DNA of 43,553 bases from Escherichia phage EP-B-K_E2. Both the position numbers and the translations under genes were made by a program. Shown here piece after piece: positions 365-25,872 of the stretch (position 1 is its first letter; each line of letters starts with the position of its first letter). The stretch lies in sequence record OR992644.1; one strand, written 5' to 3'. The notes under the pieces are model-generated. The model was not told where the DNA came from, searched no databases, and worked only from the letters and a program-made list of their open reading frames with translations.

Positions 365-370
365 GTTGAA

Positions 371-3127: not shown

Positions 3128-3157
3128 TTCTCAATTCCTTATATTGTTGGTGTATGG

Positions 3158-6316: not shown

Positions 6317-6375
6317 TATTTTCGACCCTTAGTAAAAAGGCCCAATGAAGGGCCTTAGTTAAATTGATTCAGATA

Positions 6376-7002: not shown

Positions 7003-7069
7003 CTTGATTTCTCGCTTTTCAGTTTATATTTCAAAGTTTACTCCGGGAACTGCCCGGCCAGTGATTAGA

Positions 7070-7098
7070 ACTATAATAGCTAACTATTCAGGTGTCAA
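7070..7098 (-). promoter_or_regulatory. sigma70-like promoter TTGACA-N17-TATAGT with AATAG-N4-CTATT dyad
   Basis: Read on minus strand upstream of 6376-7002. Confidence 0.6.
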
Positions 7099-7129
7099 CC
7101 CTTCCAGCCAGTTATTTTCTCAACTATAG

Positions 7130-7360
7130 TTAGGTATAGTTAGGCCACTTCAAATTACGAACCCACTCAACTTCTTTGGCGTACACCAAATCCTCTAGCT
7201 CTATTTTCCTGCACTTGAACGCGGTATACGCGAAAAACGGAAGAAGCATTATGACAAGCGGCAATATTAGCGCGTGATAAGTTAAAAACGCCACAAAACC
7301 GCCAATTACTCTGAACATTTTACGAATCATTCTAAATCCTCCTCTGTTACCTGATTCCAC
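7130..7360 (-). CDS. small membrane protein
   Basis: 76 aa with hydrophobic stretch VIGGFVAFLTYHALILPLVIMLLPFFAY. Confidence 0.45.
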   Translation of the reverse strand: MESGNRGGFRMIRKMFRVIGGFVAFLTYHALILPLVIMLLPFFAYTAFKCRKIELEDLVYAKEVEWVRNLKWPNYT

Positions 7361-8583: not shown

Positions 8584-8837
8584 TGGTCAATTAAATGTCG
8601 CGTCTTGTGATGGCAATGCATAGCCCAGCCATACATCGACTCGAAGACATAAAAGTCAGGCTTGGCGAAAGTCGTACGCTTAATATGCGACACGTGGCGG
8701 CCTATGTCTTTAGGCCGTGGCACTTTGCCTAAGTACGCCATCTCTTCCATCTGGTGTGCACCGGACGGCGCGCGCAATAACCATAGCGCCTCTGTGTTAT
8801 CCCGCCTGTCAACGGCGCGGTATAGTTGGTAAATCAT
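8565..8837 (-). CDS. hypothetical protein
   Basis: 90-aa ORF in operon context. Confidence 0.4.
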   Translation of the reverse strand: MIYQLYRAVDRRDNTEALWLLRAPSGAHQMEEMAYLGKVPRPKDIGRHVSHIKRTTFAKPDFYVFESMYGWAMHCHHKTRHLIDQWENRV

Positions 8838-8880
8838 AATTCCGACCCTCAGTTAAAGCGGCCCGAAGGCCGCGGGATAG

Positions 8881-9351
8881 TTATTCTTCTTCAAAATACT
8901 TGTTCTTGATTGCTGTCAGGCGTTCCAGGTATTCGGCCAGGTCTTCGTCTTTAATCTCGGCAATCTTCATCTTCTTACCGGTGAACTCTTCCAGCAGTTC
9001 ATCGGAATCATCGCACGCGGCATCGCTAGGACCTTCGTTAATTGCGTCATCGATAGCCTGAATCTGGTCACGCAGAGACTGGTAATCGACTTCTTCTTTC
9101 TCTTCTTCCGGCTCTGGCGTCGGCTCCTCTACTTTAGCTTTACGCGGCTTGCGTTTCGGCTTCTCTTCTTCTGCAGGTTTAATGTCAACGACGTCTTCAC
9201 CTTCGACTGGGATTTCTTTTGTTGCTTCTTTCGCAACAGTGGTCTCGATTGTTGCGGTTTCAGCAACGACTACTTGTTTCACACTGTTCGCAGCAATCAG
9301 TTCATGTGCAACTACGAAACGTTCCAGTAATTTTAAGAATTGGTCTAACAT
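8881..9351 (-). CDS. hypothetical acidic protein
   Basis: 156 aa, Glu/Asp-rich, first gene downstream of promoter 9383-9411. Confidence 0.5.
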   Translation of the reverse strand: MLDQFLKLLERFVVAHELIAANSVKQVVVAETATIETTVAKEATKEIPVEGEDVVDIKPAEEEKPKRKPRKAKVEEPTPEPEEEKEEVDYQSLRDQIQAIDDAINEGPSDAACDDSDELLEEFTGKKMKIAEIKDEDLAEYLERLTAIKNKYFEEE

Positions 9352-9382
9352 TTGTTTCTCTCCTCTCGTTTGGTATGGGCTA

Positions 9383-9411
9383 ACTATAATAGCGAACTAT
9401 TCACATGTCAA
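9383..9411 (-). promoter_or_regulatory. sigma70-like promoter TTGACA-N17-TATAGT with AATAG-N4-CTATT dyad
   Basis: Read on minus strand; divergent from HTH gene at 9476. Confidence 0.6.
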
Positions 9412-9475
9412 TGGGCTTTTCTAAAATAATTAATATGGTACTATTCACATATCAACTAACTAAGGAGTAATTGAC

Positions 9476-9691
9476 ATGCAACCATCTGAACTAGGCATCC
9501 GTGTAGAACAACGCCGCAAAGAACTTGGAATCTCCCAGCGCCGTCTGGCTGTACTAACCGGCGTTTCCCAGGGTGCAATTAACCAGCTGGCCCTTGGGGT
9601 AACTCAGGATGTCCGCCCGGCAACGCTGTTTAAACTGGCGGAAGTGCTGCAAGTAGACGCCAAGTGGCTGGCGTTCGGTGAAGGGGCTTAA
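9476..9691 (+). CDS. XRE-family helix-turn-helix transcriptional regulator (Cro/CI-like)
   Basis: ISQRRLAVLTGVSQGAINQL HTH; SD taaggag 8 nt upstream; divergent from early promoter. Confidence 0.75.
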   Translation: MQPSELGIRVEQRRKELGISQRRLAVLTGVSQGAINQLALGVTQDVRPATLFKLAEVLQVDAKWLAFGEGA

Positions 9692-9708
9692 CGCCCCTTT
9701 CTTTTTAC

Positions 9709-11994
9709 CTATTCCAAATCCTCCTCTGTCACCACCAGCATTTCATTCGGTTCGTATATTGTCTTCGGTCTTAATCTGTCACCCATCTTTTCCGGTATCC
9801 GGTATGTGCCCGGCATAACTTCACCGTTAATATCACACCCAAGCATCAACTCCCCGTCTTTCAGCATCTTCTCAAGATGATGGTTGGTGATGGCGTGGTC
9901 ACCCGAGTTCGCTACTATCTGTCGTTGGGTAAAACCGCGTCCGGTGTCGTCAGACTGTTGCAGGTCTTCCAGCGCGGCGAGTATTGATTCCTTACGCCCT
10001 TCATCCTTCCCACGTTTCACAGCATTCTTTACGTTTTCTTTACCTTCCTTTGTCAGCCCTTCTTCCCGCTCCTTCTCCTCGTCAGTCTTGAACGGCTCGA
10101 ATCCCCACGGCATCAGCACAAGCGCCTTGTGCGGTTCCGGCAGGTCGAGGTTTACGATTGTGCCGTATTCCTCTGTGCTACCGAGGAACTCAACCGCACG
10201 GTACTCTTTCGGTGGTGGCGCTTCACGGAACTGTACCGACTCCAGCACCATGCCAACCGTCTTCTGTTGAGGCCCATGCTTAAATTTAGAGTGGTATACG
10301 TTTATCTGACGGTCAGTGGCGCGTTCGATTGTCAGTTCCACGTCGACGCCCGCATACAGCGCCCCACTACCGCGGGCTTTCTTTCCACCCTTCGGTGTAT
10401 GGTGGACGACGCCCACCGCGGCTTTAGTCGCATCACGTACTTCTTTCAGGATGGCGATAACTTTACCCATACCGATTGCCGTTGATGAGCTGTTCTCGTC
10501 GAACTTATCAATCGTCAGGGCCAGGGTCTGGTTAAGGGTGTCGAACGCGACCATGCCGATAGGTTCATCGCCCGCAGTTTCGCGCATTAACTTAATCAGG
10601 CTTTTAAGTTTGCCGACTTCGCCCATGTCGATGACGTGTACATAATCTTTACCCTCTGCGCCGTATTTAGCCGCGAGCGCGTCAATACGTGTACGTGTGG
10701 CTGCGCCCCCCTCACCGTCGATATAGAAGTGGTGGCAACGCTGGGTGTCAGCGCCTGCAAACCGGTATCCCGCCGCGCTAAGGTACATCATACCCAGCGT
10801 ATAGAATGATTTGTACGTGCCTGATTCCCCAACAATATCCCAGATACAATCCGACGGCATATACCCCTCAACGACGAAATCAGCCTTTACCGGTTCCGGT
10901 AACTCGTCCTCCTCTGAGTCCTCATCACCATCTTCCAGGTCGTCGAGGCTGCATGAGACATATTCACGTGCACCCCAGCCGATAGCCTCGGCGACTTCAC
11001 TGAATGGCAGCCCGGTCGCATCGCACGCGTATCTCCACACCTCTTTCGGCGACATGCCTTCGGTTGCCGTAATGTCGGTGTCGTGAATCATGGTTACGTT
11101 AGGCGCTTCGTAGCCCTCACGCGGGAAACACAGCAGGAAGTCATCCGGGCGAGGGGTCGGGTCGCTGTAGTTCTCTGCGTGTTCTGGTGTAGCTGGCATC
11201 TTAAGGCCGCGGGGCGTCATGATGCCGCCATACTCAAACGCCAGCGCCTCGAACGCGTCTGTAAACGCGGTGCGCAGTTCTTCCGGTATCTGGTAATCCG
11301 ATGCGCTGCTCACATCGTAATCCGGGATGCCTTCCAGTAACTCGTCCGGGTCAATCAGGTCGTTGCGACGCGACCAGATAACGGTAGAGCCGACCGGCGG
11401 CAGGTACATCGGCTGCGAAAGAGTGAACCCGCTGCGGTCCGCACCCATGCCTTTGAAGAAGTGCTCAAGCAATCCATGACGAACACGGATTATGTCACCA
11501 CCTTCAACCGGTCGGCCCAGGGGCATAACGACGCGAAAGCGCGGTGACTCATCGGTATGGGATGCCGTGGTATAGAGGCACATGGCCTGACGGCTGCGCT
11601 TAACCAGTCGCACCGCTTCCTGATACTCTTCCGGCGTTGTGCTGTCGAAGTCCAGATATGCCAGCGACGATTTGCTTACAGACGCGTCACAGCGATAAAA
11701 GAAGCCTTTACGCGCTTGCTTAAAGTCCCCGGTTTCCGGGTCTTTTACGGTGCTGTGTGTTGAGTCGCACGCGGCTGTGATATAGCCGGGCGCGGTCTTC
11801 GGGTTAACCCCATCACGAACAGCATCGAGCGGCCGGATTAACTCTTTCAGGTCGTCCAGTGTTGCCGTGTGTGTGGTTCTGACGTTTATATCCTTTTTCT
11901 CTGCTCGCGCGTTGCGACGAGACCACGAGTAGGATAAAATTACATCGGACATGTTGTATATTCCTTCAGCAAGTAATTTGGCCTCGGCGTTCAC
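9709..11994 (-). CDS. DNA primase / replicative helicase (primase domain plus RecA-like ATPase)
   Basis: 761 aa; Walker A-like VGESGTYKS in C-terminal half; size and position in replication module. Confidence 0.65.
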   Translation of the reverse strand: MNAEAKLLAEGIYNMSDVILSYSWSRRNARAEKKDINVRTTHTATLDDLKELIRPLDAVRDGVNPKTAPGYITAACDSTHSTVKDPETGDFKQARKGFFYRCDASVSKSSLAYLDFDSTTPEEYQEAVRLVKRSRQAMCLYTTASHTDESPRFRVVMPLGRPVEGGDIIRVRHGLLEHFFKGMGADRSGFTLSQPMYLPPVGSTVIWSRRNDLIDPDELLEGIPDYDVSSASDYQIPEELRTAFTDAFEALAFEYGGIMTPRGLKMPATPEHAENYSDPTPRPDDFLLCFPREGYEAPNVTMIHDTDITATEGMSPKEVWRYACDATGLPFSEVAEAIGWGAREYVSCSLDDLEDGDEDSEEDELPEPVKADFVVEGYMPSDCIWDIVGESGTYKSFYTLGMMYLSAAGYRFAGADTQRCHHFYIDGEGGAATRTRIDALAAKYGAEGKDYVHVIDMGEVGKLKSLIKLMRETAGDEPIGMVAFDTLNQTLALTIDKFDENSSSTAIGMGKVIAILKEVRDATKAAVGVVHHTPKGGKKARGSGALYAGVDVELTIERATDRQINVYHSKFKHGPQQKTVGMVLESVQFREAPPPKEYRAVEFLGSTEEYGTIVNLDLPEPHKALVLMPWGFEPFKTDEEKEREEGLTKEGKENVKNAVKRGKDEGRKESILAALEDLQQSDDTGRGFTQRQIVANSGDHAITNHHLEKMLKDGELMLGCDINGEVMPGTYRIPEKMGDRLRPKTIYEPNEMLVVTEEDLE

Positions 11995-12011
11995 CGCGTC
12001 GGGGCTTTCTT

Positions 12012-12245
12012 TTATTCCAGGTCCTCTAAAGTAGCGGTCATTCCGCGAACTTCAGCAACGGCACTATATTTCCCGCCAACATTTTTCACGACACCGGATT
12101 TAACCAGCACCTTCAACGACCCTTCAATAACGGCGGAACTATAGTACTTAAAATAACTACGGCGCAAGTCCATAACGCTGCACGACCCTTTTTTACGTGT
12201 TAATGAGACGACCGCCGTAAATACGCGTGACTGGAACTCAGTCAT
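12012..12245 (-). CDS. hypothetical protein (possible winged-helix)
   Basis: 77-aa ORF coupled to 12242-12445. Confidence 0.4.
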   Translation of the reverse strand: MTEFQSRVFTAVVSLTRKKGSCSVMDLRRSYFKYYSSAVIEGSLKVLVKSGVVKNVGGKYSAVAEVRGMTATLEDLE

Positions 12246-12445
12246 TTCACGTTCTCCTTAATCCACGCTTCCACTTTCTCCCGGTCAAACGTACCTGGCT
12301 GCCGGCGGCCCATAATGCGAATACAACAATCCGGGAACTTCCCGCTCTTTAACCAGTTATTCAGCGTGCGACGAGTAACCCCGATACGCTCAGCTACTTC
12401 ATTCTGCGTCATTCTCAACCCCTCATTATCAGTTAACGGAACCAA
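12242..12445 (-). CDS. small HTH DNA-binding protein (AlpA/excisionase-like fold)
   Basis: MTQNEVAERIGVTRRTLNNWLKSGKFP HTH; first gene of minus-strand arm. Confidence 0.6.
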   Translation of the reverse strand: MVPLTDNEGLRMTQNEVAERIGVTRRTLNNWLKSGKFPDCCIRIMGRRQPGTFDREKVEAWIKENVK

Positions 12446-12843
12446 GTATACATTGCGAATAATGGGAAATCAAACATAATCGCACCTATTGACATTATGA
12501 AAATCTTCGTTTAAGGTGCTTCTATATCTTAGTTACTTTGATTCCTGTTCACCTTGTAAGAATGTTTAACCCGTGCGTCAAGCAAAGGGTTAAACACAGG
12601 CTTACTGAACACGAGAATTATCGTAACTTTCCTTCCTAAGTATCTCCGGTTGCCCTGGGCAAGCTCTATTCTCACCGGCAGCATATCTCTTAAGTATCTG
12701 ATTTTCTTAATGTGCCGTAGATTCGCAACCGTAAAAATGTAACGATTATCGGGCAGGCTTAAGGCCTGCCCTTTAGTTACCAAGTAATAAGAATAAAGGC
12801 ACAACCTTCCCTAAAGAATCACAACGGCAACGTAACTATTCTC

Positions 12844-12872
12844 TTGCACACCCCAACATAATAGGTTACTAT
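12844..12872 (+). promoter_or_regulatory. sigma70-like promoter TTGCAC-N17-TACTAT with AATAG-N4-CTATT dyad
   Basis: Nearly identical 35-bp element to 25844-25872 and 35034-35062 (opposite strand). Confidence 0.6.
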
Positions 12873-12907
12873 TCACTTATCGAAACGAGACAGAGGAGCG
12901 AGGGGTT

Positions 12908-13093
12908 ATGTTTAAGAAGGGTCAGTTGGTTAAAGTAAACGATTACGGTTATTACGGTGCTATCGAACGAATTTCAAATAAGGTTAACGGGATGTACTAC
13001 ATCCGTACACCTAACCAGCGTTTCGGTAAGTGGTGCTTCGGGGACGAGATAAAACTCATCGGCAACAATTTTAAATTCAAAGGGGTGAAGTGA
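12908..13093 (+). CDS. hypothetical protein
   Basis: 61 aa, SD gaggagcgagggg upstream. Confidence 0.45.
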   Translation: MFKKGQLVKVNDYGYYGAIERISNKVNGMYYIRTPNQRFGKWCFGDEIKLIGNNFKFKGVK

Positions 13094-13389
13094 TGGAAGA
13101 ATTACCTCAATGCGAACGCCAGTTCATTAGCGGGTTTATCCCAGTAAATAATTTCAACATTTCTGATTTACTGGAACTAAGAGAAAATGGTGCTTTGTGG
13201 GTATGTAACGCCCGGGATGTAACAAAGGCCCGGGTATGGAATTTTAGCCGGCTGCGTCGCCCTAATAAGTCAGGGGCTGGCGCCGTGACAATGGATTTGT
13301 TACAGCGCAAAGGTAAGCTGTTTATACGAACGGCATCGAATCATGATGCTCGTGCCGACGACTCTGAGGGAGGTTGCCGTGTTAAGTAA
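13090..13389 (+). CDS. hypothetical protein
   Basis: 99 aa, ATGA overlap with previous gene. Confidence 0.45.
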   Translation: MMEELPQCERQFISGFIPVNNFNISDLLELRENGALWVCNARDVTKARVWNFSRLRRPNKSGAGAVTMDLLQRKGKLFIRTASNHDARADDSEGGCRVK

Positions 13390-13422
13390 TATTTTAACCG
13401 TTTATGTGGTGCGGGGGTTGGT

Positions 13423-13566
13423 ATGAGAGAAGCATTTGAACGGTGGGCCATCGTCGAGGGTTTGCCGATTAACAAGGGTTCGAAGAAAGAGTACCTTAAC
13501 GTTAAGACGCGTCTCGCGTGGCGGGCGTGGAAAGCTGGTGTGCAAGCTGTGATGAATACGAGGTGA
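13423..13566 (+). CDS. hypothetical small protein (47 aa, not in ORF track)
   Basis: ATG with gggggttgg SD-like upstream; fills gap between flanking genes. Confidence 0.3.
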   Translation: MREAFERWAIVEGLPINKGSKKEYLNVKTRLAWRAWKAGVQAVMNTR

Positions 13567-13569
13567 GAT

Positions 13570-13749
13570 ATGAGTAAGTGGGTTGAGTGCAGTGAGCAGA
13601 TGCCTAAATATGGGGAGTATGTCATTGTCTATGTCCGCGCCGGGTACTGCTATATAGCAAGATACAACGGTGACTTTGTCTGTGATGAATATGTTAAGTG
13701 TGCCGGGGTGACCCACTGGATGTCGTTACCCGAGCCGCCGGAAGTGTGA
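13570..13749 (+). CDS. DUF551-like small protein (59 aa, not in ORF track)
   Basis: MSKWVECSEQMP...HWMSLPEPP pattern typical of DUF551; SD aggtgag. Confidence 0.4.
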   Translation: MSKWVECSEQMPKYGEYVIVYVRAGYCYIARYNGDFVCDEYVKCAGVTHWMSLPEPPEV

Positions 13750-13782
13750 TGTTCAATAGTTTGGGATTTTACTGAGTGACTT

Positions 13783-13820
13783 ACGCTGCTACACAGCAGC
13801 GTATCATTTTTCTCATTTTT
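13783..13820 (+). terminator. rho-independent terminator
   Basis: Stem acgctgct/agcagcgt, loop acac, followed by T-rich run. Confidence 0.55.
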
Positions 13821-13873
13821 GTTCTATTTCACCAAATGCAACAATCGAAGCGACTATTGCAGGAGATGCAACA

Positions 13874-14047
13874 ATGATTACTAAAGAACAGGCTGAACGA
13901 CTAATCGCGTTAATCGACACAATGATGGATGTAAAAACCGATTTAGCACCGGCAACAGAGGAATCCGCTACCTGGTCGCTTGAAGAAAGAGAAGCAGAAG
14001 CGGAACGGGGTTTACTGGCGTTCATCGATTCAATAACACACCAATAA
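13874..14047 (+). CDS. hypothetical small protein (57 aa, not in ORF track)
   Basis: SD aggaga 7 nt upstream of ATG. Confidence 0.35.
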   Translation: MITKEQAERLIALIDTMMDVKTDLAPATEESATWSLEEREAEAERGLLAFIDSITHQ

Positions 14048-14054
14048 AATTTAC

Positions 14055-14083
14055 TTGCACACTGGGATAGAATAGACTACTAT
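14055..14083 (+). promoter_or_regulatory. sigma70-like promoter TTGCAC-N17-TACTAT with AATAG-N4-CTATT dyad
   Basis: Upstream of 14114 gene. Confidence 0.6.
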
Positions 14084-14113
14084 TCATTTACACAGACGAT
14101 AGGAGAGACAGAG

Positions 14114-14332
14114 ATGTTCCTGGAATGCAAATCCTACGATGGTTACTGGGCGCTGGCTAAAAACGACCTGTACCACATCAAAGAAGACAGCGACGAGAGT
14201 CGATGCTACATAATAGACGACAACGGCACTGAACTTGACGTCTATTACACCGGGTATGGTCGATGGGCGTTATCCGCAGACGATGCCTTTGTGTTTGAAG
14301 AATATAACGGGGAGGAACCGGATGATGAGTAA
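14114..14332 (+). CDS. hypothetical acidic protein
   Basis: 72 aa, SD aggagag upstream. Confidence 0.5.
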   Translation: MFLECKSYDGYWALAKNDLYHIKEDSDESRCYIIDDNGTELDVYYTGYGRWALSADDAFVFEEYNGEEPDDE

Positions 14333-15035
14333 CAAAAACGAAGTATTCGAGTACCTGATTAACCAACTACGGCAGCAGTTACAAGTCGTAGATGTAATGG
14401 GTGAAATCGAACGGTGGAGTATTGACCGTAGTATTGCCGGACGAGGTAACTATACCGACGAGGAAAACGCCATAATTGATGCTTACATCGGCCTGGAGCA
14501 CAACCCGTACAAGCAACAGTGCGAAGACCTGGCGCGTGAGGTGCAGTCACTTAAGAATCAGTTACGTGATGCGTCGGCGCAGATTAAGGAGTTGCAGGAA
14601 GACAACATTGAGAAATCCAGGCACATATCACATCTGGCGGGGCAATCGTCGGCGTATTGCAATGACGCTTTTCGCCTTCAAGCGCAAGTTGATGACCTGG
14701 TAAAACGGCTGGCTAAGGCCACTGGTGACGAGTCTGCGCAGATTAAGGAGTTGACGCTCGCGCTAGATAGTTTAGATAACGAGGTTATGTGTCTTCGTTC
14801 GATCGTTGACCTGGACCCTAAAGGCGCGATTGGGTACATCCGGCGGGCAAATAGTGCAATGACTGACACCATGCGCCGCCAATACCTTAGCAAAGCACTT
14901 GAGGAACTCGGATGTAAGGATTCGCCAGAACAATCCGGTTGCCATAAAGATGACGTGCAGGAATGCAAGCACGATTGGTACTTTTACGATAAAGGTGCTT
15001 CGATGATGTGCAAGAAATGTGGGTTAAAGAAATGA
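14322..15035 (+). CDS. hypothetical coiled-coil protein with C-terminal Cys cluster
   Basis: Start moved to ATG with SD ggagg; internal repeat SAQIKEL x2; C-terminal CxxxxxxC...CxxC. Confidence 0.5.
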   Translation: MMSNKNEVFEYLINQLRQQLQVVDVMGEIERWSIDRSIAGRGNYTDEENAIIDAYIGLEHNPYKQQCEDLAREVQSLKNQLRDASAQIKELQEDNIEKSRHISHLAGQSSAYCNDAFRLQAQVDDLVKRLAKATGDESAQIKELTLALDSLDNEVMCLRSIVDLDPKGAIGYIRRANSAMTDTMRRQYLSKALEELGCKDSPEQSGCHKDDVQECKHDWYFYDKGASMMCKKCGLKK

Positions 15036-15378: not shown

Positions 15379-15459
15379 TTATCCAGTTAAACGACATTAT
15401 GAAAGCAGACATCATTCAGCTTGAAGATTACGGTATGCAACTCGCGGAGATTGAGGAAC

Positions 15460-15753
15460 ATGAGTCTCGCAACTGACATCCTGAAACGAAGCGGCCTTGC
15501 GCCGCTGTCGCCGAGAGTTAAAACACAGATATACAAGCGTCGGGGTAACGCGCTGTACCCAGAGATTCAGGCCAGGCGCAAAGCTATCCGCGCCTGTGGA
15601 TTCCAGAACGGGAAGGCCGTGAATCTCGGTGAGTTCAAGACAAAGGAACGTGCCGCTATTGCTAATCGGTTATTTAATTACTGGAAATCGCTGGGATACG
15701 ATGATATTCCGACGAAACCACAGAGACGACAATACATCTGGAGACATAAATAA
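15460..15753 (+). CDS. hypothetical basic protein
   Basis: ORF-track ORF 15421-15753 trimmed to first ATG. Confidence 0.45.
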   Translation: MSLATDILKRSGLAPLSPRVKTQIYKRRGNALYPEIQARRKAIRACGFQNGKAVNLGEFKTKERAAIANRLFNYWKSLGYDDIPTKPQRRQYIWRHK

Positions 15754-15783
15754 ACTGTTATTAGGATAATTCTTACCCGTGGT

Positions 15784-15823
15784 ATCCTCCAGTTACTGCA
15801 TACTTAATACGCACCTGGAGGAT
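15784..15823 (+). promoter_or_regulatory. RNA hairpin sequestering the holin Shine-Dalgarno
   Basis: Perfect 9-bp inverted repeat atcctccag / ctggaggat; right arm contains GGAGG 7 nt before TTG start at 15829. Confidence 0.5.
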
Positions 15824-15828
15824 TCACC

Positions 15829-16137
15829 TTGGATAAATTTACTGAAACAGTGACAGGCTGGCTTCTGGCCGCCGCACTAGCCGGCGGGGTCATCGGGCTA
15901 CGACAACATAAGTCCGTTATTTCTGGCCCCATCGACGGCTTCTGCTTTATCGCAACTGGCTTTACTTGCGCCGTATTTGGTGCACCTCTCGCAGCGCAAT
16001 GGTTCGGCATTACTGGGGAGCGTGAAATTGCTGGCCTGGGATTCATCATTGCCATTCTCTGGATGCCTATCTATTCCCGCCTCTCCGGTATCGTCGCCGG
16101 AGAATACATCTCACGTCGAGGAGGCCCGGATGAATGA
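15829..16137 (+). CDS. putative holin (three predicted TM segments, TTG start)
   Basis: Three hydrophobic segments, charged C-terminus, directly upstream of endolysin. Confidence 0.55.
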   Translation: MDKFTETVTGWLLAAALAGGVIGLRQHKSVISGPIDGFCFIATGFTCAVFGAPLAAQWFGITGEREIAGLGFIIAILWMPIYSRLSGIVAGEYISRRGGPDE

Positions 16138-16402
16138 GCTATTCTGGTTCGGCGGTATGCTGGCAATCGGGGGCACATCGCTGTTTAACGTGTACCATCC
16201 CAGTGTGGATGACGGATTATTCGGGCGTGTACTCTATATCCTGACTGCTATTGTCTGCGCTGCCGGGTGTATCCACCTGTTACAAGGCAGCATGTCACCA
16301 ACGCTGCCTGAGACATTAATCACATTAGTTGCGCTGCGTCAGATTCGTCAGGCGTGGCTGTCATACGGAGGACATAAGCGTGTCTCGAAATATTTCAGAT
16401 AA
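16130..16402 (+). CDS. small membrane protein (second holin or antiholin-like)
   Basis: 90 aa, two hydrophobic segments, overlaps holin and endolysin. Confidence 0.4.
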   Translation: MNELFWFGGMLAIGGTSLFNVYHPSVDDGLFGRVLYILTAIVCAAGCIHLLQGSMSPTLPETLITLVALRQIRQAWLSYGGHKRVSKYFR

Positions 16403-16868
16403 TGGGTTGCATTTTACTGCTGCGTTTGAGGGATTCCGCGGAACTGCGTATCGCGCGACACCGAATGAGAAGTACCTGACTATAGGCTACGGTCACTACG
16501 GGCCAGACGTAACACCAGGTAAGACCATCACACCGGGACAGGGCCTCCTGTTACTGAATCGTGATATGGCTAAGGCCGTAGCTGCGGTTGATGCAGCAGC
16601 ACACCATTCACTGACACAGGCACAGTTCGACGCTGTGTGTGACCTGGTCTATAACGCAGGTGCGGGCGTGATTTCGGCTACTATCGGAACCGGTAAGGCG
16701 CTGCGTTCTGGCGATATTGCGACGCTGCGTGCCAAGCTGGCGCTGTTCATCAACCAGAACGGCAAACCGTTACTTGGCCTGCGCCGCCGTACCGCAGGTC
16801 GTCTGGCGCTGTTCGATGGTAAACCGTGGCAGGAGGCGGAGGCTATCGGGCGCGCGGTGAAAGGTTGA
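16380..16868 (+). CDS. endolysin, phage lysozyme (GH24-like)
   Basis: GLHFTAAFEGFRGTAYRATPNEKYLTIGYGH lysozyme signature; GTG start with SD ggagg. Confidence 0.75.
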   Translation: MSRNISDNGLHFTAAFEGFRGTAYRATPNEKYLTIGYGHYGPDVTPGKTITPGQGLLLLNRDMAKAVAAVDAAAHHSLTQAQFDAVCDLVYNAGAGVISATIGTGKALRSGDIATLRAKLALFINQNGKPLLGLRRRTAGRLALFDGKPWQEAEAIGRAVKG

Positions 16869-16934
16869 CACCTGATACCAATCCGACGATACTTAAATCA
16901 CCTCCTGTTCCATCCCTCTACTCTCCAGTTTTAT

Positions 16935-16964
16935 CCCGGCCCTGACCCAGCCGGGATTTTTTTT
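16935..16964 (+). terminator. rho-independent terminator after lysis genes
   Basis: cccggc-cctgaccca-gccggg stem followed by 8 T. Confidence 0.7.
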
Positions 16965-16986
16965 ATCTATTTTCTGCAATGACTAG

Positions 16987-17015
16987 TTGACTATTATCTA
17001 TGACCCTATTATATT
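16987..17015 (+). promoter_or_regulatory. sigma70-like promoter TTGACT-N17-TATATT
   Basis: Upstream of small-gene block beginning 17049; contains CTATT repeats. Confidence 0.55.
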
Positions 17016-17048
17016 TACTCCATCGACAACGAGAACGGAGTAGGGAAG

Positions 17049-17261
17049 ATGAAATTATATTTAGTAGAAGCCGGCTGGTGTGATTACGACCAATACGATT
17101 CTTTTGTGGTGTGGGCTAAGTCGCCAGAAGAAGCCTTGTGTCTGGTTCGCGCTAAGGACGACCCAATAACCATGAATAACTTCGACGATAACGTAAAAGT
17201 TACCGAAATCAAGAGACCAAAAGAAAGCGGTATCGTACTTGGCTCATTCAACGCGGGGTAA
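17049..17261 (+). CDS. hypothetical protein
   Basis: 70 aa, SD ggagtaggg. Confidence 0.45.
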   Translation: MKLYLVEAGWCDYDQYDSFVVWAKSPEEALCLVRAKDDPITMNNFDDNVKVTEIKRPKESGIVLGSFNAG

Positions 17262-17267
17262 GCAGAA

Positions 17268-17417
17268 ATGAAAATCACAGATATTGAAGCATTCGAAGAC
17301 GCACAACTGATGGCACGTATTGCCGTTAGTAACCTGGGTGGAAGCATTCCCGCGGATTCGTTCTGGGCAGCGGCGATGCAGGCACTTAAAGCAGCTTATG
17401 CAGGAGACAAGAAATGA
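17268..17417 (+). CDS. hypothetical small protein (49 aa, not in ORF track)
   Basis: MKITDIEAFEDAQL...KAAYAGDKK; truncated paralog at 17608. Confidence 0.35.
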   Translation: MKITDIEAFEDAQLMARIAVSNLGGSIPADSFWAAAMQALKAAYAGDKK

Positions 17418-17611
17418 AGCGTTACCAGAAGAAAACGGTAGAGAAGTTCATGGCATACCTTAATGAGATGGGTCTCTCTGTTTACGGGCCGAGTATGACG
17501 CCGGATGGGGAAGAAACGGGCGCACTAATGGATTATGACGTGGACACGATATTGGCCCGCCGTAAATATATCACTAAAGGCAATTTACGTAAGTTTGAGG
17601 GTTACGAATGA
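17414..17611 (+). CDS. hypothetical protein
   Basis: 65 aa, ATGA overlap. Confidence 0.45.
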   Translation: MKRYQKKTVEKFMAYLNEMGLSVYGPSMTPDGEETGALMDYDVDTILARRKYITKGNLRKFEGYE

Positions 17612-17679
17612 AAACCACAGATACCGAAGCATTCAAAAACGAGCAACTGAAAGCAGCCTATGCAGGAGAGAAGAAATGA
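17608..17679 (+). pseudogene. internally deleted copy of the 17268-17417 gene (23 codons)
   Basis: MKTTDTEAFKNEQLKAAYAGEKK matches N- and C-termini of 17268 product. Confidence 0.3.
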
Positions 17680-17837
17680 GCGAAAAAGAGCAAATAACCC
17701 ACCCACCATTACGTATAGGCCGTAAAGTCAGTCACACACCGTTCCCGACACGAGAGGAACTGATGAAACGCAACAGTTTTCCGGGGCCGGACAAGGACAA
17801 GTATATCAATCGCATGTGGGGAGAGCGTAAAGAATGA
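17676..17837 (+). CDS. hypothetical small protein (53 aa)
   Basis: ATGA overlap with preceding ORF. Confidence 0.35.
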   Translation: MSEKEQITHPPLRIGRKVSHTPFPTREELMKRNSFPGPDKDKYINRMWGERKE

Positions 17838-18070
17838 CTGACCGAGAATATGAAAAGATGATGGTAGAGGCCGCCGACGGCGGCGTAGACATCGGGCACG
17901 TGATGCGCGTCCTGAATACTAAAATTGCGGTAGCGGAGCAAATGGTAGAGTCGCTTTATGAGACTCGCCGTGAGCTGATTAACCGCTTCAACCTAAATAA
18001 GGGGCGCACTATTTCTGACGATTTCGATGGGGATTACCGAAATGGCGATTTTTATGAGGGAGCCGAATAA
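17834..18070 (+). CDS. hypothetical protein
   Basis: 78 aa, overlapping stop/start. Confidence 0.45.
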   Translation: MTDREYEKMMVEAADGGVDIGHVMRVLNTKIAVAEQMVESLYETRRELINRFNLNKGRTISDDFDGDYRNGDFYEGAE

Positions 18071-18375
18071 TGCCTAAAATCACAATAGCATCGCTCGAGC
18101 GCCGTATTCTGGTGCTTGAGTCAGAGAAACAGACGTTAGGCGGGCAACTGTCGATTAACGGTGAGTTTCAACTGGAGGCGTTTAAGCAGTTACTGGCTAT
18201 TAAGACGCAAGAACCGAACGTGTACGCTGGGTTGTTCGTAGGTGAGAGTGGCTCGTCACAGGCCTACTACACCACGGCAAACGGGGCCTTAAAGAATGGG
18301 GCCTTAAAGAACGGGGCCGACGTAATAATCCCGCTGTATGACAATGTAGTCGGACCAGAAGATGAAAGCGCCTGA
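18070..18375 (+). CDS. hypothetical protein (EFQLEAF motif family)
   Basis: 101 aa; shares NxEFQLEA[FY]xxLLA motif with 18910 product; NGALKNGALKNGA repeat. Confidence 0.45.
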   Translation: MPKITIASLERRILVLESEKQTLGGQLSINGEFQLEAFKQLLAIKTQEPNVYAGLFVGESGSSQAYYTTANGALKNGALKNGADVIIPLYDNVVGPEDESA

Positions 18376-18544
18376 ACCGGTAGTAATTGATGGCGTCCTG
18401 TGGAAACCTTACTCGGTTAACCACATCGACGCCGATGGGAAGAAGTTCAGCTTCTACATTTTTGCAATTAGCCGTGAGCACGCCGCTTGTGTGGTAGACG
18501 ATATACGAGAAACGGCGTGGCTTGGTGATGAGATAGTGGGGTGA
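18362..18544 (+). CDS. hypothetical protein
   Basis: 60 aa in tightly packed operon. Confidence 0.4.
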   Translation: MKAPEPVVIDGVLWKPYSVNHIDADGKKFSFYIFAISREHAACVVDDIRETAWLGDEIVG

Positions 18545-18732
18545 ATATGTTCAGTGACATCAACGCAGCAATAGAAGAAGCAATCTGGCGTCGTTACAAC
18601 GGTGAGCAACAGCGGCACTTCTGCCTGGTGCAACGCGGTAACATGGTTGCCGTAGTGCAGGACCGCGATAACAAATATCCGAATGCGATGTGGACAACGA
18701 GAGGGTTTAAAAATGCTAGTAAGAATCGATAA
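18541..18732 (+). CDS. hypothetical protein
   Basis: 63 aa. Confidence 0.4.
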   Translation: MNMFSDINAAIEEAIWRRYNGEQQRHFCLVQRGNMVAVVQDRDNKYPNAMWTTRGFKNASKNR

Positions 18733-18913
18733 GCTGGAACCGGGTATGAAAGTGGTATCTAAGAATGGGACACGCACAATAACCGGACTTAAAAGCATGA
18801 AGCAGATGCCGAATGGCCGTGTAGTGTACGCGTGGTTTGCTACGAAGTCGCACCCACGACATGCGAGAACCATAGTAGGATGTGGAGATGTCGTGATTGA
18901 GGTGGTGGAATGA
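18713..18913 (+). CDS. hypothetical protein
   Basis: ORF-track ORF trimmed to ATG at 18713. Confidence 0.4.
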   Translation: MLVRIDKLEPGMKVVSKNGTRTITGLKSMKQMPNGRVVYAWFATKSHPRHARTIVGCGDVVIEVVE

Positions 18914-19131
18914 GCAGAGTAGGTAAAGAGACATTGCGCCAACAGATAGACCGCCTGGCGTCTAAAGGTAGCCCAGAGTTAGGGCTTGGCATGACACTGA
19001 ACGAAGAGTTCCAGTTAGAGGCATATCGGATGTTACTGGCAAAACTTAGCACGTGCCGAAACTGTAACCATGAAACAACAGTAGAGGATATCGAATACAA
19101 TCAATGTGGTTTTTGCGGGTGTGATTTATGA
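18910..19131 (+). CDS. hypothetical protein with C-terminal zinc-ribbon-like Cys cluster (EFQLEAY motif family)
   Basis: CRNCNHE...CGFCGC; N-terminal motif paralogous to 18070 product. Confidence 0.45.
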   Translation: MSRVGKETLRQQIDRLASKGSPELGLGMTLNEEFQLEAYRMLLAKLSTCRNCNHETTVEDIEYNQCGFCGCDL

Positions 19132-19364
19132 TTACCAGCATTCCGAATCTGATTAAAGAATACGGCACGATGGCTGAGACATGCCGACAAACCGGCATCA
19201 ACGAAATGACGATTGCGAAGTACAGCAAAGACGTGAATTGTGAGCGCCATGTAATTTATAACAACCGTCTTATGACGCATGTTAAGACAAGCCCGGTGTT
19301 ATTCACGCGCCGGGGTATCACTAAAACCGAGCAACGTATTGCTAAAGAGGAGAGTGGGGAATGA
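19128..19364 (+). CDS. hypothetical protein, possible HTH
   Basis: MAETCRQTGINEMTIAKYS resembles an HTH. Confidence 0.4.
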   Translation: MITSIPNLIKEYGTMAETCRQTGINEMTIAKYSKDVNCERHVIYNNRLMTHVKTSPVLFTRRGITKTEQRIAKEESGE

Positions 19365-19540
19365 TTATCTTAGAATTACTTAGCAACATCGGTTACGTGG
19401 TGTTTTGGTTCGCGTTTTTAATGGCTTTCTGGACTAAGCCAGAAACATTTACCAACCTACCAAGATACATCTGGTGGCCTATGTTTTTCGGGCTAGTGGC
19501 GTCTGGTGTCGCGGACGCCATGTTGAGATTCTTAAAATGA
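19361..19540 (+). CDS. small membrane protein (59 aa, not in ORF track)
   Basis: Two hydrophobic segments; ATGA overlaps both sides. Confidence 0.35.
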   Translation: MIILELLSNIGYVVFWFAFLMAFWTKPETFTNLPRYIWWPMFFGLVASGVADAMLRFLK

Positions 19541-19638
19541 AACTGTTAATCATCCCTAACTCATGGGCGATTGCCGTAGCTAACGACCATTACGGCGGCG
19601 ATGGTAAAAGAGCACCACGACACAGCCTATACAACTGA
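19537..19638 (+). CDS. hypothetical small ORF (33 aa)
   Basis: ATGA-coupled to previous gene, ends just before terminator. Confidence 0.25.
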   Translation: MKLLIIPNSWAIAVANDHYGGDGKRAPRHSLYN

Positions 19639-19642
19639 TGCA

Positions 19643-19665
19643 AGCCCTCTACGGAGGGCTTTTCT
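19643..19665 (+). terminator. rho-independent terminator
   Basis: agccctc-tacg-gagggct followed by tttt. Confidence 0.6.
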
Positions 19666-19759
19666 GTACATCCAGCCCAATCCCCTTATATAATCCCTTT
19701 AGACGCGTAGGGCGCGTCTGGTGCGCTCTGATGGTCAGACGCATATGCAAGGGGATTCT

Positions 19760-20269
19760 ATGAAGCTGAAACTCAAGCAGCCATCGCCAGAGGTGGTGCA
19801 AGCTGCGCATGAAGAAGCTGTTAGCGCAAACCGTCGCCGTAAACGACCGCGCGGTAAACAGAGCCTTTATCAATCATCCCGTAATTCCGCTGCGCTGTGG
19901 GACCCGGACTATTGCGACGAATTGATTCGTTTCTTCGACCGCACGTCGTGGGAGCTTGTGCCTACGTCCAAAGGTGACGAACGCCCGCTGATTCAGGATA
20001 AACCGCCATCACTGGCACGCTTCGCCTTACACATCGGCGTCACTATCCCGATTATTAAGCTGTGGCTGCGCGAGATTCCCGCATTTGCAGAAGCCTGGGA
20101 GACGGCGCAGGCGCTGGAAGAGGCGTATTTCACTGAGACTGGCGCCGCGGGCATCTCCGCGACGTTCGCTGCCGCTAAGCTGGGGCTGAATAAGAAAGAT
20201 GAGCCTGAGAACGATAGCAGCACATCGCAGAACATCACAGTAGTGATAAAGAAAGATACTGGAGAGTAG
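19760..20269 (+). CDS. terminase small subunit
   Basis: Position immediately upstream of large terminase, basic N-terminus, size about 170 aa; SD aagggga. Confidence 0.55.
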   Translation: MKLKLKQPSPEVVQAAHEEAVSANRRRKRPRGKQSLYQSSRNSAALWDPDYCDELIRFFDRTSWELVPTSKGDERPLIQDKPPSLARFALHIGVTIPIIKLWLREIPAFAEAWETAQALEEAYFTETGAAGISATFAAAKLGLNKKDEPENDSSTSQNITVVIKKDTGE

Positions 20270-20327
20270 TAGACGGGCTAGATAAACGATGCTAGTATCA
20301 ACCCATCCATTGAAGTGGGTTGATACT

Positions 20328-21125
20328 ATGAATTACGAAAAGATATACGAAAGCTTTATATCTCGTTGCAGGTCGCTGCCACACCGGGGCTACGCCGAAA
20401 GACACCACATACTGCCGCGGTCCTTAGGCGGGGATGACTCCCCCGAGAATCTTATTGATTTATCCGCAAGAGAACATTTCTTCGCGCATCTCCTTCTGGC
20501 AAAAATCCACGGCGGCAACATGTGGGCCGCTCTGGCATACATGTCAAGAGGCGGCACTAAGTCAAGCAAACTACATAAATGCACATCCCGTCAGTATGAG
20601 TTTATAAAGCGTAAAGACGCTGAATGGCGTAGCTTGGCGTACCGTGGGGATAAAAACCCGTTCTACGGGAAAACGCATTCACCACAAGCCCTGGCGAAAA
20701 TGCGCAAACCTAGAGTCAATAAAGAGAGACTTTTTGGGCGGGCGGTGCCGGGTGTCGGGGCTATCATATCGTTTGTGCAGACATATAGACCCCGTGCGGT
20801 AGAAATAGATACTACGGTTAGAGACCGAATTGATAGTTGGTTCGCGGTGGACGAAGAACTGCGGCAGCTTAATGTATTCCTCGCCCGTAGCCAAGGGCAG
20901 AAAGCGCTCAATCGAGACCACCACGGCGAAAAGAACCCAAACTACGGCAATGGGAAAGCCATATCCGGCGAAAAGAACCCGATGTTCGGTAAGAAACACA
21001 GCGAAAGCACCAGGGCTAAAATTGCGGAGAAAATGAAACGCACTATGGTGTGCCCGCACTGCGGCAAAGAATCTAACATAGCAAACGCACATAGGTGGCA
21101 CTTTGACAACTGCAAACACAAATGA
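20328..21125 (+). CDS. HNH homing-type endonuclease with NUMOD3-like repeats
   Basis: HHILPRSLGGDDSPENLIDLSAREH HNH motif; repeated KNPxYGK motifs. Confidence 0.7.
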   Translation: MNYEKIYESFISRCRSLPHRGYAERHHILPRSLGGDDSPENLIDLSAREHFFAHLLLAKIHGGNMWAALAYMSRGGTKSSKLHKCTSRQYEFIKRKDAEWRSLAYRGDKNPFYGKTHSPQALAKMRKPRVNKERLFGRAVPGVGAIISFVQTYRPRAVEIDTTVRDRIDSWFAVDEELRQLNVFLARSQGQKALNRDHHGEKNPNYGNGKAISGEKNPMFGKKHSESTRAKIAEKMKRTMVCPHCGKESNIANAHRWHFDNCKHK

Positions 21126-22359
21126 GAAAGAGATGTTGCTTCTCCCGCACCAATACGAACTATTGGCTGATACCACGACAAAGATAATCGGGCTGTGTTC
21201 CGGATTCGGGGGCGGTAAAACGTACAGCGCCGCGCGTAAAGCGGTGCATCTGGCTCTTCTTAACCCAGGTGTAGACGGAATAATAACAGAGCCGACGTTT
21301 CCTCTGTTAGTGCAGGTTATGTTTCCAGAACTTATGGCGGCGCTGGACTTCTTCGGCGTCAAATACAAGTTCAACAAGGTTGAGTCTATTTTTTATTGCG
21401 ACATAAACGGGCAAACAACCCGTATTATTTGCGGAAGTATGGAGAACTATCAGCGACTTATCGGGATAAACGCCGCGTGGTGCGTGTGCGACGAGTTTGA
21501 TACCGCTAAGCAAGAAACCGCTTATGCCGCGTACATGAAGCTGCTAGGCCGCCTTCGTAGGGGTAATGTGCGCCAGTTGGTGATAGTGTCTACCCCTGAG
21601 GGTTTCAGGGCGATGTACCAGATATTCGTAACCGAAGCCGATGCCAGCAAACGGCTAATACGTGCGAAGACAACCGATAACTACCACTTACCAGCGGACT
21701 ACGTAGAGTCAATGCGCAGCCAGTACCCTGAGCAACTCATAAACGCCTATCTGAATGGCGAGTTCGTAAACCTTACATCTGGAGTTGTATATTATGGCTA
21801 TCAACGAGGTAAATGCGAATCCAACGAAACTATTAAACCGGGTGAACCTCTATACATTGGGCAGGATTTTAACGTCGGCAAAATGGCGTCGTGCGTTTAT
21901 GTAAAACGCGGTGCTGATTTTCATGCGGTAGCCGAGTTGGTCGACCTTTTTGATACCCCTGATGTAGTTCGCGTTATCAAGGAGCGGTGGGCCGGGCATC
22001 ACATAATTATGTACCCAGACGCCAGTGGTCGTAATCGTAAAAGCAACTCCGCTTCCACATCTGACATAGCTATCCTGGAGCAAGCAGGATTTGAGATTAG
22101 AGCTAAATCAAAAAATCCACCTGTGAAAGACCGTGTCGCCGCGAGTAACGCCGCGTTTGAAAAAGGTAGAGTCTTTATTAACTCGAAGGCTTGCCCTGCA
22201 ACGGCGCGAGGATTAGAGCAGCAAGCCTATGATAAAAACGGTGAGCCAGAGAAAAACGGCGTAATCGACCATATGGTTGACGCAGCTACATACTTGATCG
22301 CTTACGAGATGCCAGTAGCTAAACCTGTCATTAATATACCGGTTACTTTCGCGCTATAA
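21103..22359 (+). CDS. terminase large subunit
   Basis: Walker A-like GFGGGKTYSA, 418 aa, followed by portal. Confidence 0.8.
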   Translation: MTTANTNEKEMLLLPHQYELLADTTTKIIGLCSGFGGGKTYSAARKAVHLALLNPGVDGIITEPTFPLLVQVMFPELMAALDFFGVKYKFNKVESIFYCDINGQTTRIICGSMENYQRLIGINAAWCVCDEFDTAKQETAYAAYMKLLGRLRRGNVRQLVIVSTPEGFRAMYQIFVTEADASKRLIRAKTTDNYHLPADYVESMRSQYPEQLINAYLNGEFVNLTSGVVYYGYQRGKCESNETIKPGEPLYIGQDFNVGKMASCVYVKRGADFHAVAELVDLFDTPDVVRVIKERWAGHHIIMYPDASGRNRKSNSASTSDIAILEQAGFEIRAKSKNPPVKDRVAASNAAFEKGRVFINSKACPATARGLEQQAYDKNGEPEKNGVIDHMVDAATYLIAYEMPVAKPVINIPVTFAL

Positions 22360-25808: not shown

Positions 25809-25843
25809 TTCTAAATTCCTTATCTCTCGTTTCGATGTAATGA

Positions 25844-25872
25844 ATAGTACCCTATTATGCTGGTGTGTGCAA
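25844..25872 (-). promoter_or_regulatory. sigma70-like promoter TTGCAC-N17-TACTAT with dyad (minus strand)
   Basis: Near-identical to 12844-12872 element. Confidence 0.6.

Follow-up and report, generated by a model that had tools for sequence, protein, structure and literature searches.

The window analysed here is the whole 43,553-nt stretch of DNA from Escherichia phage EP-B-K_E2 (OR992644.1), the source genome being that of a Kagunavirus (Guernseyvirinae), a virulent E. coli siphophage. Between the endolysin gene (16329-16868) and the terS gene (19721-20269), 14 consecutive open reading frames (ORF1 to ORF14) of 23-101 aa are located on the plus strand (17049-19638), and this array of very small genes is referred to below as the cassette. 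A first-pass annotation, made from the sequence alone, had described 14 tiny ORFs under a single promoter (16987-17015), joined by ATGA or other 4-nt overlaps, had pointed to paralogs and a decayed duplicate among them, and had assigned the block to early host takeover and anti-defence. The number of genes, the single promoter and the tight coupling were all borne out.

The coordinates of the ORFs in the window were obtained by manual reading combined with homology; automatic ORF chaining mis-called starts and over-split ORF1. Eight of the 13 junctions are ATGA overlaps, and the other five comprise a TAATG, a GTGA or 2-nt gap, two overlaps (14 and 20 nt) and a 6-nt gap. Since the relatives of ORF9 begin with MFSD..., its most likely start is ATG 18547 and not GTG 18541, and the start of ORF10 was placed at ATG 18713 because the homolog in Salmonella phage L223 begins with MRVRIDRLEPG. 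Strong PHROG matches were obtained for 12 of the 14 ORFs, a weak one for ORF4 and none for ORF10, and no matched PHROG family has an assigned function. Minus-strand ORFs in the region (up to 162 aa) are broken up by the mosaic structure and, giving no PHROG match, were treated as spurious. A 100-aa ORF at 17535-17837 was also rejected as a gene; its PHROG match starts only at residue 48, and the real gene is therefore ORF5 from 17676.

For the comparison with relatives, positions 17000-19700 were used as a megablast query against 50,697 phage records. The matching records (222) belong nearly all to Escherichia and Salmonella Guernseyvirinae (Kagunavirus, Jerseyvirus), and similarity to this query is piecewise, since none of them spans 80% or more of it; a 25-kb query gave ~90% identity to Kagunaviruses such as NTEC3. 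By using terS as the anchor, 49 IMG/VR loci were collected and, together with GenBank loci, yielded 37 cassettes with both anchors (endolysin and terS), to which all counts out of 37 refer.

A constant expression frame around exchangeable genes

All Kagunavirus and Jerseyvirus relatives examined share a fixed expression frame, which consists of a terminator, a promoter, a 33-nt leader with a Shine-Dalgarno sequence and a second terminator, and which holds promoterless mini-genes whose stops and starts mostly overlap as ATGA. On the upstream side, an intrinsic terminator (16933..16965, plus strand; 8-bp GC-rich stem, 9-nt loop, T8 run) closes the lysis operon. It has a predicted folding energy of -13.8 kcal/mol (z -3.8), is kept in 37/37 related cassettes and is the 5' insulator of the cassette. 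Behind it lies the sigma-70 type promoter TTGACT-17-TATATT (16987..17015, plus strand), which agrees with the consensus at 10 of 12 positions and whose hexamers and spacing are both invariant in all 37; it argues for helper-free transcription by the host RNA polymerase. The leader (17016..17048, plus strand; 33 nt, with the Shine-Dalgarno sequence acggagtagggaag) ends exactly at the first ATG; in all relatives its conservation extends up to that codon, and genes of at least 12 different families occupy the first position behind it. On the downstream side, an intrinsic terminator (19642..19667, plus strand; 8-bp stem, tetraloop, TTTTCT) ends the cassette; its hairpin (19642-19661) has a predicted folding energy of -15.7 kcal/mol (z -3.3), and the terminator is kept in all relatives. 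Both stems show compensatory changes in Jerseyvirus relatives, the downstream one with the variant cccgc/gcggg. Inside the array, no promoter-like or plus-strand terminator-like site was found, and an Rfam scan of the region gave no family at threshold, the sub-threshold matches being mostly on the terminator hairpins.

Inside this frame lies the most variable part of the genome among the relatives. The cassettes range from 1172 to 2975 nt, with that of the window (2856 nt) near the top, and contain approximately 68 ORF families; since both content and length vary, the ORFs are far from invariant across relatives. Variable gene content between conserved flanks (endolysin and terS) is also what defines a phage accessory region. 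A backbone appears in constant order, composed of ORF12 (37/37), ORF6 and ORF5 (36 each), ORF2 (34), ORF8 (30), the ORF7/ORF11 family (29), ORF14 (23) and ORF9 (most cassettes). ORF1, ORF3, ORF10 and ORF11 are rare and ORF4 is unique; together with ORF13, all of these are missing from most relatives. Pooled ratios of nonsynonymous to synonymous substitution rates (dN/dS) are 0.07-0.26 for the backbone and 0.07-0.37 over the whole range, with ORF13 and the ORF7/ORF11 family at 0.33-0.37, which indicates that the genes are real, that purifying selection acts on them and that they turn over through gene replacement and not through fast change of sequence.

The genes are gained, lost or replaced as whole ORFs at the start/stop junctions. 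Among 630 endpoints of similarity to related loci, 67% are within 12 nt of a junction (14% expected; median distance 4 nt), and 4-nt overlaps make up 197 of the 370 junctions in the 37 cassettes, a count in which the window cassette is included. Away from the junctions, breakpoints cluster at the site of the ORF4 deletion, in the C-terminus of ORF6, where the N-terminal module of ORF7 ends, and at the 3' end of ORF9.

A phage-wide motif touches the promoter of this frame. The motif, TGAATAGT-N3-CTATTAT-NGT, occurs in eight copies in the window (0.08 expected), located on the minus strand at 3161-3181, 7070-7090, 9383-9403, 12855-12875 and 14066-14086 and on the plus strand at 16980-17000, 25841-25861 and 35031-35051. 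The copy at 16980..17000 is degenerate (3 mismatches), overlaps the -35 hexamer of the cassette promoter and may be a candidate site for a phage regulator; the others are located in promoters of replication and structural operons. Three copies form the spacer and the -10 of TTGAC(A/G) promoters of minus-strand replication operons, and four, devoid of a -35 hexamer, are followed by gg(g)gtgtgcaag. The fBC-Eco01 paper (PMC9825357) describes the motif as a 'phage RNA polymerase promoter'. Because no phage RNA polymerase is evident in the phage, it is more likely a regulator-binding site than a promoter of such a polymerase.

A separate element was observed between the cassette terminator and terS (19665-19720, plus strand), where the promoter-like TGTACA-18-TATAAT is combined with a perfect 8-bp inverted repeat (agacgcg-tagg-gcgcgtct). 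Both parts are conserved in essentially all relatives and could represent a late-operon control element or a packaging-related site.

The ORF2 family and the origin of ORF4

ORF2 (17268..17417, plus strand; 49 aa) is a backbone gene of the family phrog_2180 (E 3e-23; dN/dS 0.17), which is also found in 605 phage records. It is followed by a rare insert, ORF3 (17414..17611, plus strand; 65 aa; phrog_35106, E 3.8e-15), with homologs found only in phage Schulenburg and in the IMG/VR locus L030, and then by ORF4 (17608..17679, plus strand; 23 aa), which had been read in the first-pass annotation as an internally deleted copy of ORF2. Pairwise alignment confirmed the internal deletion, which is in frame and of 78 nt: positions 17607-17655 correspond to 17267-17315 at 82% (49 nt) and positions 17646-17679 to 17384-17417 at 91% (34 nt), with the similarity ending exactly at the ORF borders and the deletion flanked by ACTGA microhomology (direct repeats). 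ORF4 is an in-frame remnant of a second phrog_2180 copy, in which the start, the last nine codons and the ATGA junction into ORF5 are retained.

Full-length genes of 150 nt in other Kagunaviruses have ends that are ~93% identical to the two halves of ORF4 and thus closer to it than is ORF2 of the same genome, which points to descent from a different allele and not to a recent tandem copy. All matches of ORF4 in 165 phage records are the two ends of full-length genes, and no truncated phrog_2180 copy like it was seen in the related cassettes examined. Outside the window, ORF3 is the first gene of the cassette and is followed by a full-length phrog_2180 gene: the order in Schulenburg and L030 is ORF3 homolog, full-length phrog_2180 gene and DUF2737 gene (in L030 with one extra ORF before DUF2737), and the order in another locus, L034, is ORF1, ORF2 and DUF2737 gene. 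From these orders, the window cassette looks like a join of two cassette heads, one carrying ORF3 with its ORF2-like partner and the other ORF1 with ORF2. The redundant second ORF2-type gene would then have lost 78 nt in frame between the ACTGA repeats to give ORF4.

ORF4 is best seen as a remnant that keeps the native ribosome-binding region of ORF5 and its ATGA coupling, not a protein function. Its last nine codons hold the Shine-Dalgarno sequence and the ATGA junction of ORF5, and this alone suffices to account for retention of the 3' end. It is improbable that ORF4 is instead a functional 23-aa micro-protein, a minimised form of the ORF2 family with both conserved ends kept. The good Shine-Dalgarno sequence (GAGGG), the ATG, the reading frame and both ATGA overlaps are all retained, but the deletion endpoints lie inside a 5-nt direct repeat, as is typical of slippage, and the short form is confined to this cassette among those examined. 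The two ends that remain are the most conserved parts of the family, yet 26 of the 49 residues are gone, the central hydrophobic core among them, and the full-length paralog ORF2 stands 190 nt upstream. That a product so short can be maintained is illustrated by the 33-aa ORF14 of the same operon, which is clearly under purifying selection. It also counts against the remnant reading that a deletion is expected to be in frame one time in three by chance, so that ORF4 could still encode a functional micro-protein.

Fusions at the same end of the cassette were observed in relatives. In phage Bas73 (L056, 203-451) and in the IMG/VR loci L009, L013 and L051, the first gene is the N-terminus of another first-slot family (MSNV...TIAITEELEAKCIA) fused in frame to a complete phrog_2180 gene, so that recombination at junctions also yields fused proteins.

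The shared module of ORF7 and ORF11 and the remaining genes

ORF7 (18070..18375, plus strand; 101 aa) and ORF11 (18910..19131, plus strand; 73 aa), the kinship of which had been proposed from a short common motif, are true paralogs with 39% identity over the first 44 aa (E 2e-6), and both match phrog_9023 and phrog_10200. They share an N-terminal module (N-module) of ~45 aa (residues 1-45 in ORF7, ending with EFQLEAFKQLLA) and differ in the C-terminal tails. The tail of ORF7 is variable, and that of ORF11 carries the Cys cluster (CxxC-16-CxxC) that had been described as zinc-ribbon-like and that was found to be kept, as CxNC...16 residues...CGFC, in 11 of 12 full-length homologs. One full-length homolog has a substitution of the first Cys, and the fifth Cys of ORF11 is not conserved. 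The C-terminus of ORF11 is a predicted zinc ribbon with two CxxC knuckles, and its AlphaFold2 (AF2) model, with a mean predicted local distance difference test score (pLDDT) of 80, consists of two helices and two knuckles; a Foldseek search of the PDB with this model gave nothing below E 1.9. The tail of ORF11 after the motif YRMLL is unrelated to that in L030.

Within the Kagunaviruses, the N-module of ORF7 is nearly invariant at the protein level (proportions of synonymous and nonsynonymous differences, pS 0.33 and pN 0.04, respectively), and among relatives it is fused to at least eight unrelated C-terminal tails. These observations mark the N-module as a constrained protein domain with exchangeable partners, and the normal synonymous divergence rules out constraint at the DNA level behind its conservation. 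By an exhaustive profile search, the N-module was detected in 161 protein clusters (50% identity), always at residues 1-50 of proteins of 35-308 aa, which stem from virulent as well as temperate phages of enterobacteria and in which many unrelated C-terminal domains follow it. The long proteins among them contain DUF551, a dATP/dGTP pyrophosphohydrolase domain or segments of phrog_60/660/5117, occur in temperate phages of Klebsiella, E. coli and Salmonella and are annotated as DUF551 or Eaa. The shared helical N-module probably docks on a common partner, with the C-terminal domains being exchangeable. This widespread N-module with swapped C-termini is the most intriguing loose end of the analysis. 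In ORF7, a 15-nt tandem duplication (18280-18309, plus strand) was also observed, which gives NGALK-NGALK; in P0067, the closest database relative, the unit is not duplicated.

For the rapid duplication and decay that had been proposed for this block, one decayed copy (ORF4) and genuine paralogs (ORF7 and ORF11) were found. As a general description it is overstated: phrog_2180 is present at two places in only 6 of the 605 phage records, and turnover is mainly whole-gene replacement among genes under purifying selection.

ORF1 (17049..17261, plus strand; 70 aa; phrog_5444, E 3.5e-8) is an acidic protein (isoelectric point, pI, 4.5) and a rare occupant of the first slot, with homologs only in two Kagunavirus records (93% identity), one Acinetobacter phage (35%) and L034. 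ORF5 (17676..17837, plus strand; 53 aa) is basic and belongs to DUF2737 (PF10930, 34.5 bits against a cut-off of 25, E 1.8e-8; dN/dS 0.24). ORF6 (17834..18070, plus strand; 78 aa; phrog_1402, E 1.4e-21) is an acidic, probably helical backbone protein with a variable C-terminus, its breakpoint hot spot being near 18000. The profile of phrog_268 (119 positions) combines an ORF6-like N-terminus (1-41, corresponding to 17834-17956 in ORF6) with a NinH-like domain as in ORF12 (44-117), so that some phages encode the ORF6-like and ORF12-like parts as one protein.

ORF8 (18362..18544, plus strand; 60 aa; phrog_10509, E 3.7e-35; dN/dS 0.07) is an acidic backbone protein confined to Kagunavirus, with all 33 homologous clusters at least 65% identical. 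In GenBank, the only label that points to takeover, 'RNA polymerase inhibitor, similar to 2LMC_A', stands on its homolog in fEg-Eco06. An assignment of ORF8 to the T7 Gp2 type of inhibitor was not supported: no sequence or profile similarity to T7 Gp2 was found, the hhalign probability being 0.6% and neither phmmer nor a PDB profile search recovering Gp2. The AF2 model of ORF8 (pLDDT 83) has a beta-beta-beta-alpha layout and no specific structural relative, its match to the Gp2 fold being no better than those to dozens of unrelated small alpha/beta proteins. The label should not be propagated on ORF8 homologs.

ORF9 (18547..18732, plus strand; 61 aa; phrog_5407, E 4.8e-26) is basic. ORF10 (18713..18913, plus strand; 66 aa; basic, pI 10.1; no PHROG or Pfam match) is a very rare insert at the ORF9/ORF11 junction, with only 6 clusters among 5.8 billion proteins. 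Among GenBank phages, only Salmonella phage L223 has ORF10 (77% nt identity), there at the head of the cassette. In the window, it is placed exactly between ...GGGTTTAAAAATG and ...GGAATGA (the ATG closing ORF9 in L030, and the ATGA opening ORF11), and alignment with fEg-Eco06 and L030 indicated that its insertion removed the normal ATGA stop of ORF9 and lengthened the 3' end of ORF9 by 20 nt. ORF10 is otherwise an orphan, and its weak match over 20 residues to Avs1c, an accessory protein of AVAST, which two independent libraries gave (E 0.049 in NCBIfam and 0.04 in PADLOC), is probably noise.

ORF12 (19128..19364, plus strand; 78 aa; dN/dS 0.16), a NinH-like helix-turn-helix protein, is the only universal gene of the cassette. 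It was treated as a divergent NinH homolog because pairwise BLASTP with lambda NinH is significant (33% identity over 51 aa, E 1e-9) despite a PF06322 score below the gathering score (24.6 bits against 29.8). Lambda NinH is a Fis-like dimeric DNA-bending protein, a Fis mimic (PMC7166090), and ORF12 is likely to be a NinH-type, Fis-like DNA-bending protein as well, as predicted from this similarity. ORF13 (19361..19540, plus strand; 59 aa; phrog_10956, E 2.2e-17) is a small membrane protein in which residues 2-24 form a strong transmembrane segment (Kyte-Doolittle maximum 1.9) and a second stretch, at ~37-55, is hydrophobic. ORF14 (19537..19638, plus strand; 33 aa; phrog_32259, E 6.5e-19; dN/dS 0.11) is the usual last gene. 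Sequence searches of the PDB with ORF1, ORF3, ORF5, ORF6, ORF8, ORF9, ORF10, ORF11 and ORF12 returned no relative.

The array is further flanked on the 5' side by the holin gene (15829-16137) and on the 3' side by terL (21103-22359). A gene for an HNH-NUMOD3 homing endonuclease lies between terS and terL (20289-21125, plus strand), and a full copy of it was observed in 1 of 48 related loci (L003, 79% aa identity) and a short fragment in one more. Positions 1-14408 of the window are 100% identical to the unannotated record OR992643.1 (Escherichia phage EP-M-A, 24,264 nt), and the small-gene cassette apparently lies outside that record.

Proposed function and comparison with known systems

Taken together, the block is probably a non-structural mosaic accessory operon of a virulent Kagunavirus and a functional analogue of the lambdoid nin/ea regions. 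Host RNA polymerase would produce one polycistronic mRNA, and ribosomes would move from gene to gene by translational coupling. Exchange would take place by recombination at junction microhomologies among co-infecting relatives or lambdoid prophages, and selection would retain the arrangements in which coupling is preserved. The present cassette was probably formed from the backbone (ORF2, ORF5, ORF6, ORF7, ORF8, ORF9, ORF12 and ORF14) by the acquisition of four units: ORF1 in the hypervariable first slot, ORF3 with the second ORF2-type gene joined behind ORF2, ORF10 inserted exactly at the ORF9/ORF11 junction, and ORF11 inserted before ORF12. The products are likely to be small modulators that act on DNA transactions and host physiology and can be dispensed with one by one, as is suggested indirectly by the absence of ORF1, ORF3, ORF4, ORF10, ORF11 and ORF13 from most relatives, and it may be conjectured that the rare variable genes (ORF1, ORF3, ORF10 and ORF11) act against host defences or competing phages.

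Several points weigh against this reading or narrow it. Transcription into a single mRNA is, like its timing, an inference. The number of 68 families is approximate because automated chaining over-splits ORFs (ORF1 into three pieces), and the 630 endpoints, which stem from related genomes, do not represent independent events, the pattern being strong all the same. The motif copy over the -35 hexamer means that the cassette promoter may be regulated and not constitutive. The sole published Kagunavirus time course, that of K1B4, is too coarse for a firm temporal class and annotates only 57 genes (PMC12645636).

In that time course, the NinH gene of the cassette was classed as 'middle' together with the replication genes, outside the four early genes (PMC12645636), and the 'early' timing given by the first-pass annotation can be deduced from the sigma-70 promoter only. 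Its host-takeover and anti-defence assignment found no support in the searches either, since no ORF matches such an annotated PHROG, Pfam, NCBIfam or PADLOC function (the NCBIfam and PADLOC scans gave noise only) or a PDB sequence, and the 'RNA polymerase inhibitor' label on the ORF8 homolog is without sequence support, with a non-specific fold match. An anti-defence and host-takeover island, in which most products are early inhibitors of host defence, transcription or replication and turnover reflects an arms race, is accordingly considered unlikely. The region does fit the definition of an accessory region, a type of region in which counter-defence genes are over-represented (bioRxiv 10.1101/2023.04.06.535777), and an ORF8 homolog bears the inhibitor label; its most variable slot, with at least 12 families, is directly behind a strong promoter, and ORF1, ORF6, ORF7, ORF8 and ORF11 are small and acidic (pI 4.5-5.0). 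The backbone, however, is conserved by purifying selection, no product matches a characterised anti-defence, takeover or defence family, and a Gp2-type shut-off of the host RNA polymerase would be expected to harm the Kagunaviruses, because these phages are without an evident RNA polymerase of their own. Furthermore, the Kagunaviruses of BASEL, whose records match the cassette region, are reported to be highly sensitive to restriction-modification (RM) systems and variably sensitive to Old (bioRxiv 10.1101/2024.09.12.612763), which argues against a broad anti-restriction role of the backbone genes. The anti-defence or takeover label is therefore left as a conjecture by analogy, most plausible for ORF1, ORF3, ORF10 and ORF11 and unsupported for the backbone.

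Competition between phages, through superinfection exclusion or through interference with lambdoid phages that co-infect the host or reside in it, would be a further candidate for the main role in place of action on host defences, but is improbable. The recognisable families of the cassette are common to temperate lambdoid phages, ORF12 would be a NinH-type Fis mimic and lambdoid phages use Fis for site-specific recombination (PMC7166090). ORF13 is a small membrane protein, as are many exclusion proteins, but it is present in only 11 of the 37 cassettes, no product is homologous to a known exclusion protein, and the argument is wholly one of analogy. A mosaic accessory operon is thus the preferred reading. 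Under it, the segment 17016-19640 is the most likely dispensable, payload-tolerant locus for engineering of these therapeutic-candidate phages.

Integron arrays resemble the cassette in having one fixed promoter and promoterless units that are exchangeable one by one. They differ in that attC-like inter-gene repeats are absent from the cassette and most of its junctions are without intergenic DNA; because most genes overlap, the junctions mostly leave no intergenic site for an attC. In the region examined (15421-22359), an integrase gene was not found either, and exchange appears to proceed by ordinary recombination at coding junctions. It is a doubtful, rather speculative proposal that the N-module is a docking or delivery domain by which swapped effector domains are steered to one conserved host or phage target (a polymorphic phage effector system), and that the frame of promoter, leader, ATG...ATGA and terminator is an integron-like platform for gene-precise exchange of cassettes.

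The accessory regions described by Silas et al. (bioRxiv 10.1101/2023.04.06.535777) consist likewise of variable, small, uncharacterised genes between conserved flanks. Many of those regions carry counter-defence genes (ocr, ral, abc2), whereas none is recognisable in the cassette; Guernseyvirinae are absent from the main text of that study.

The pL 'ea/b' region of lambdoid phages (abc2, small ORFs, ea22/Eaa, DUF551) holds a DUF2737 homolog of ORF5 in the pL operon of HK022, between abc2 and ea22; none of the genes in the pL region of HK022 was found to carry the N-module when searched with a hidden Markov model of it. The Eaa/DUF551 proteins of temperate phages are long mosaics headed by the N-module of the ORF7/ORF11 type and share its layout, in which a conserved N-module and an 'EPVAY'-type linker are followed by swapped domains. 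In contrast to these long proteins, the N-module proteins of Kagunaviruses are mostly short (tail of 5-55 aa), and, unlike in the pL region, no recombination or anti-RecBCD genes adjoin the N-module genes of the cassette.

A parallel in organisation is the nin region of lambda and P22 (ninB to ninI, removed by nin5), a single transcription unit of mostly small, non-essential genes with ATGA overlaps, where 4-nt overlaps occur at 5 of 8 junctions in lambda, compared with the 8 of 13 in the window cassette. Both contain a NinH homolog, and the nin region is strongly mosaic among lambdoid phages, as the cassette is among its relatives. They differ in location (between the replication genes and Q, against between the lysis genes and terS of a virulent phage), in expression (from pR by N antitermination, against an own sigma-70 promoter with flanking terminators) and in content, since the enzymes NinB, NinG and NinI are not present in the cassette, whose genes are smaller. 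By sequence similarity, the cassette genes appear to be drawn partly from the lambdoid nin/ea pool (NinH, DUF2737 and the Eaa/DUF551-type N-module), and a link is thereby made between Kagunavirus accessory genes and those of temperate lambdoid phages. An anatomy of this kind is already well documented for phages, and the cassette is a new, clean and well-resolved example of a well-known kind of region, in which a small virulent phage keeps the frame constant across two genera and swaps whole mini-genes inside it.

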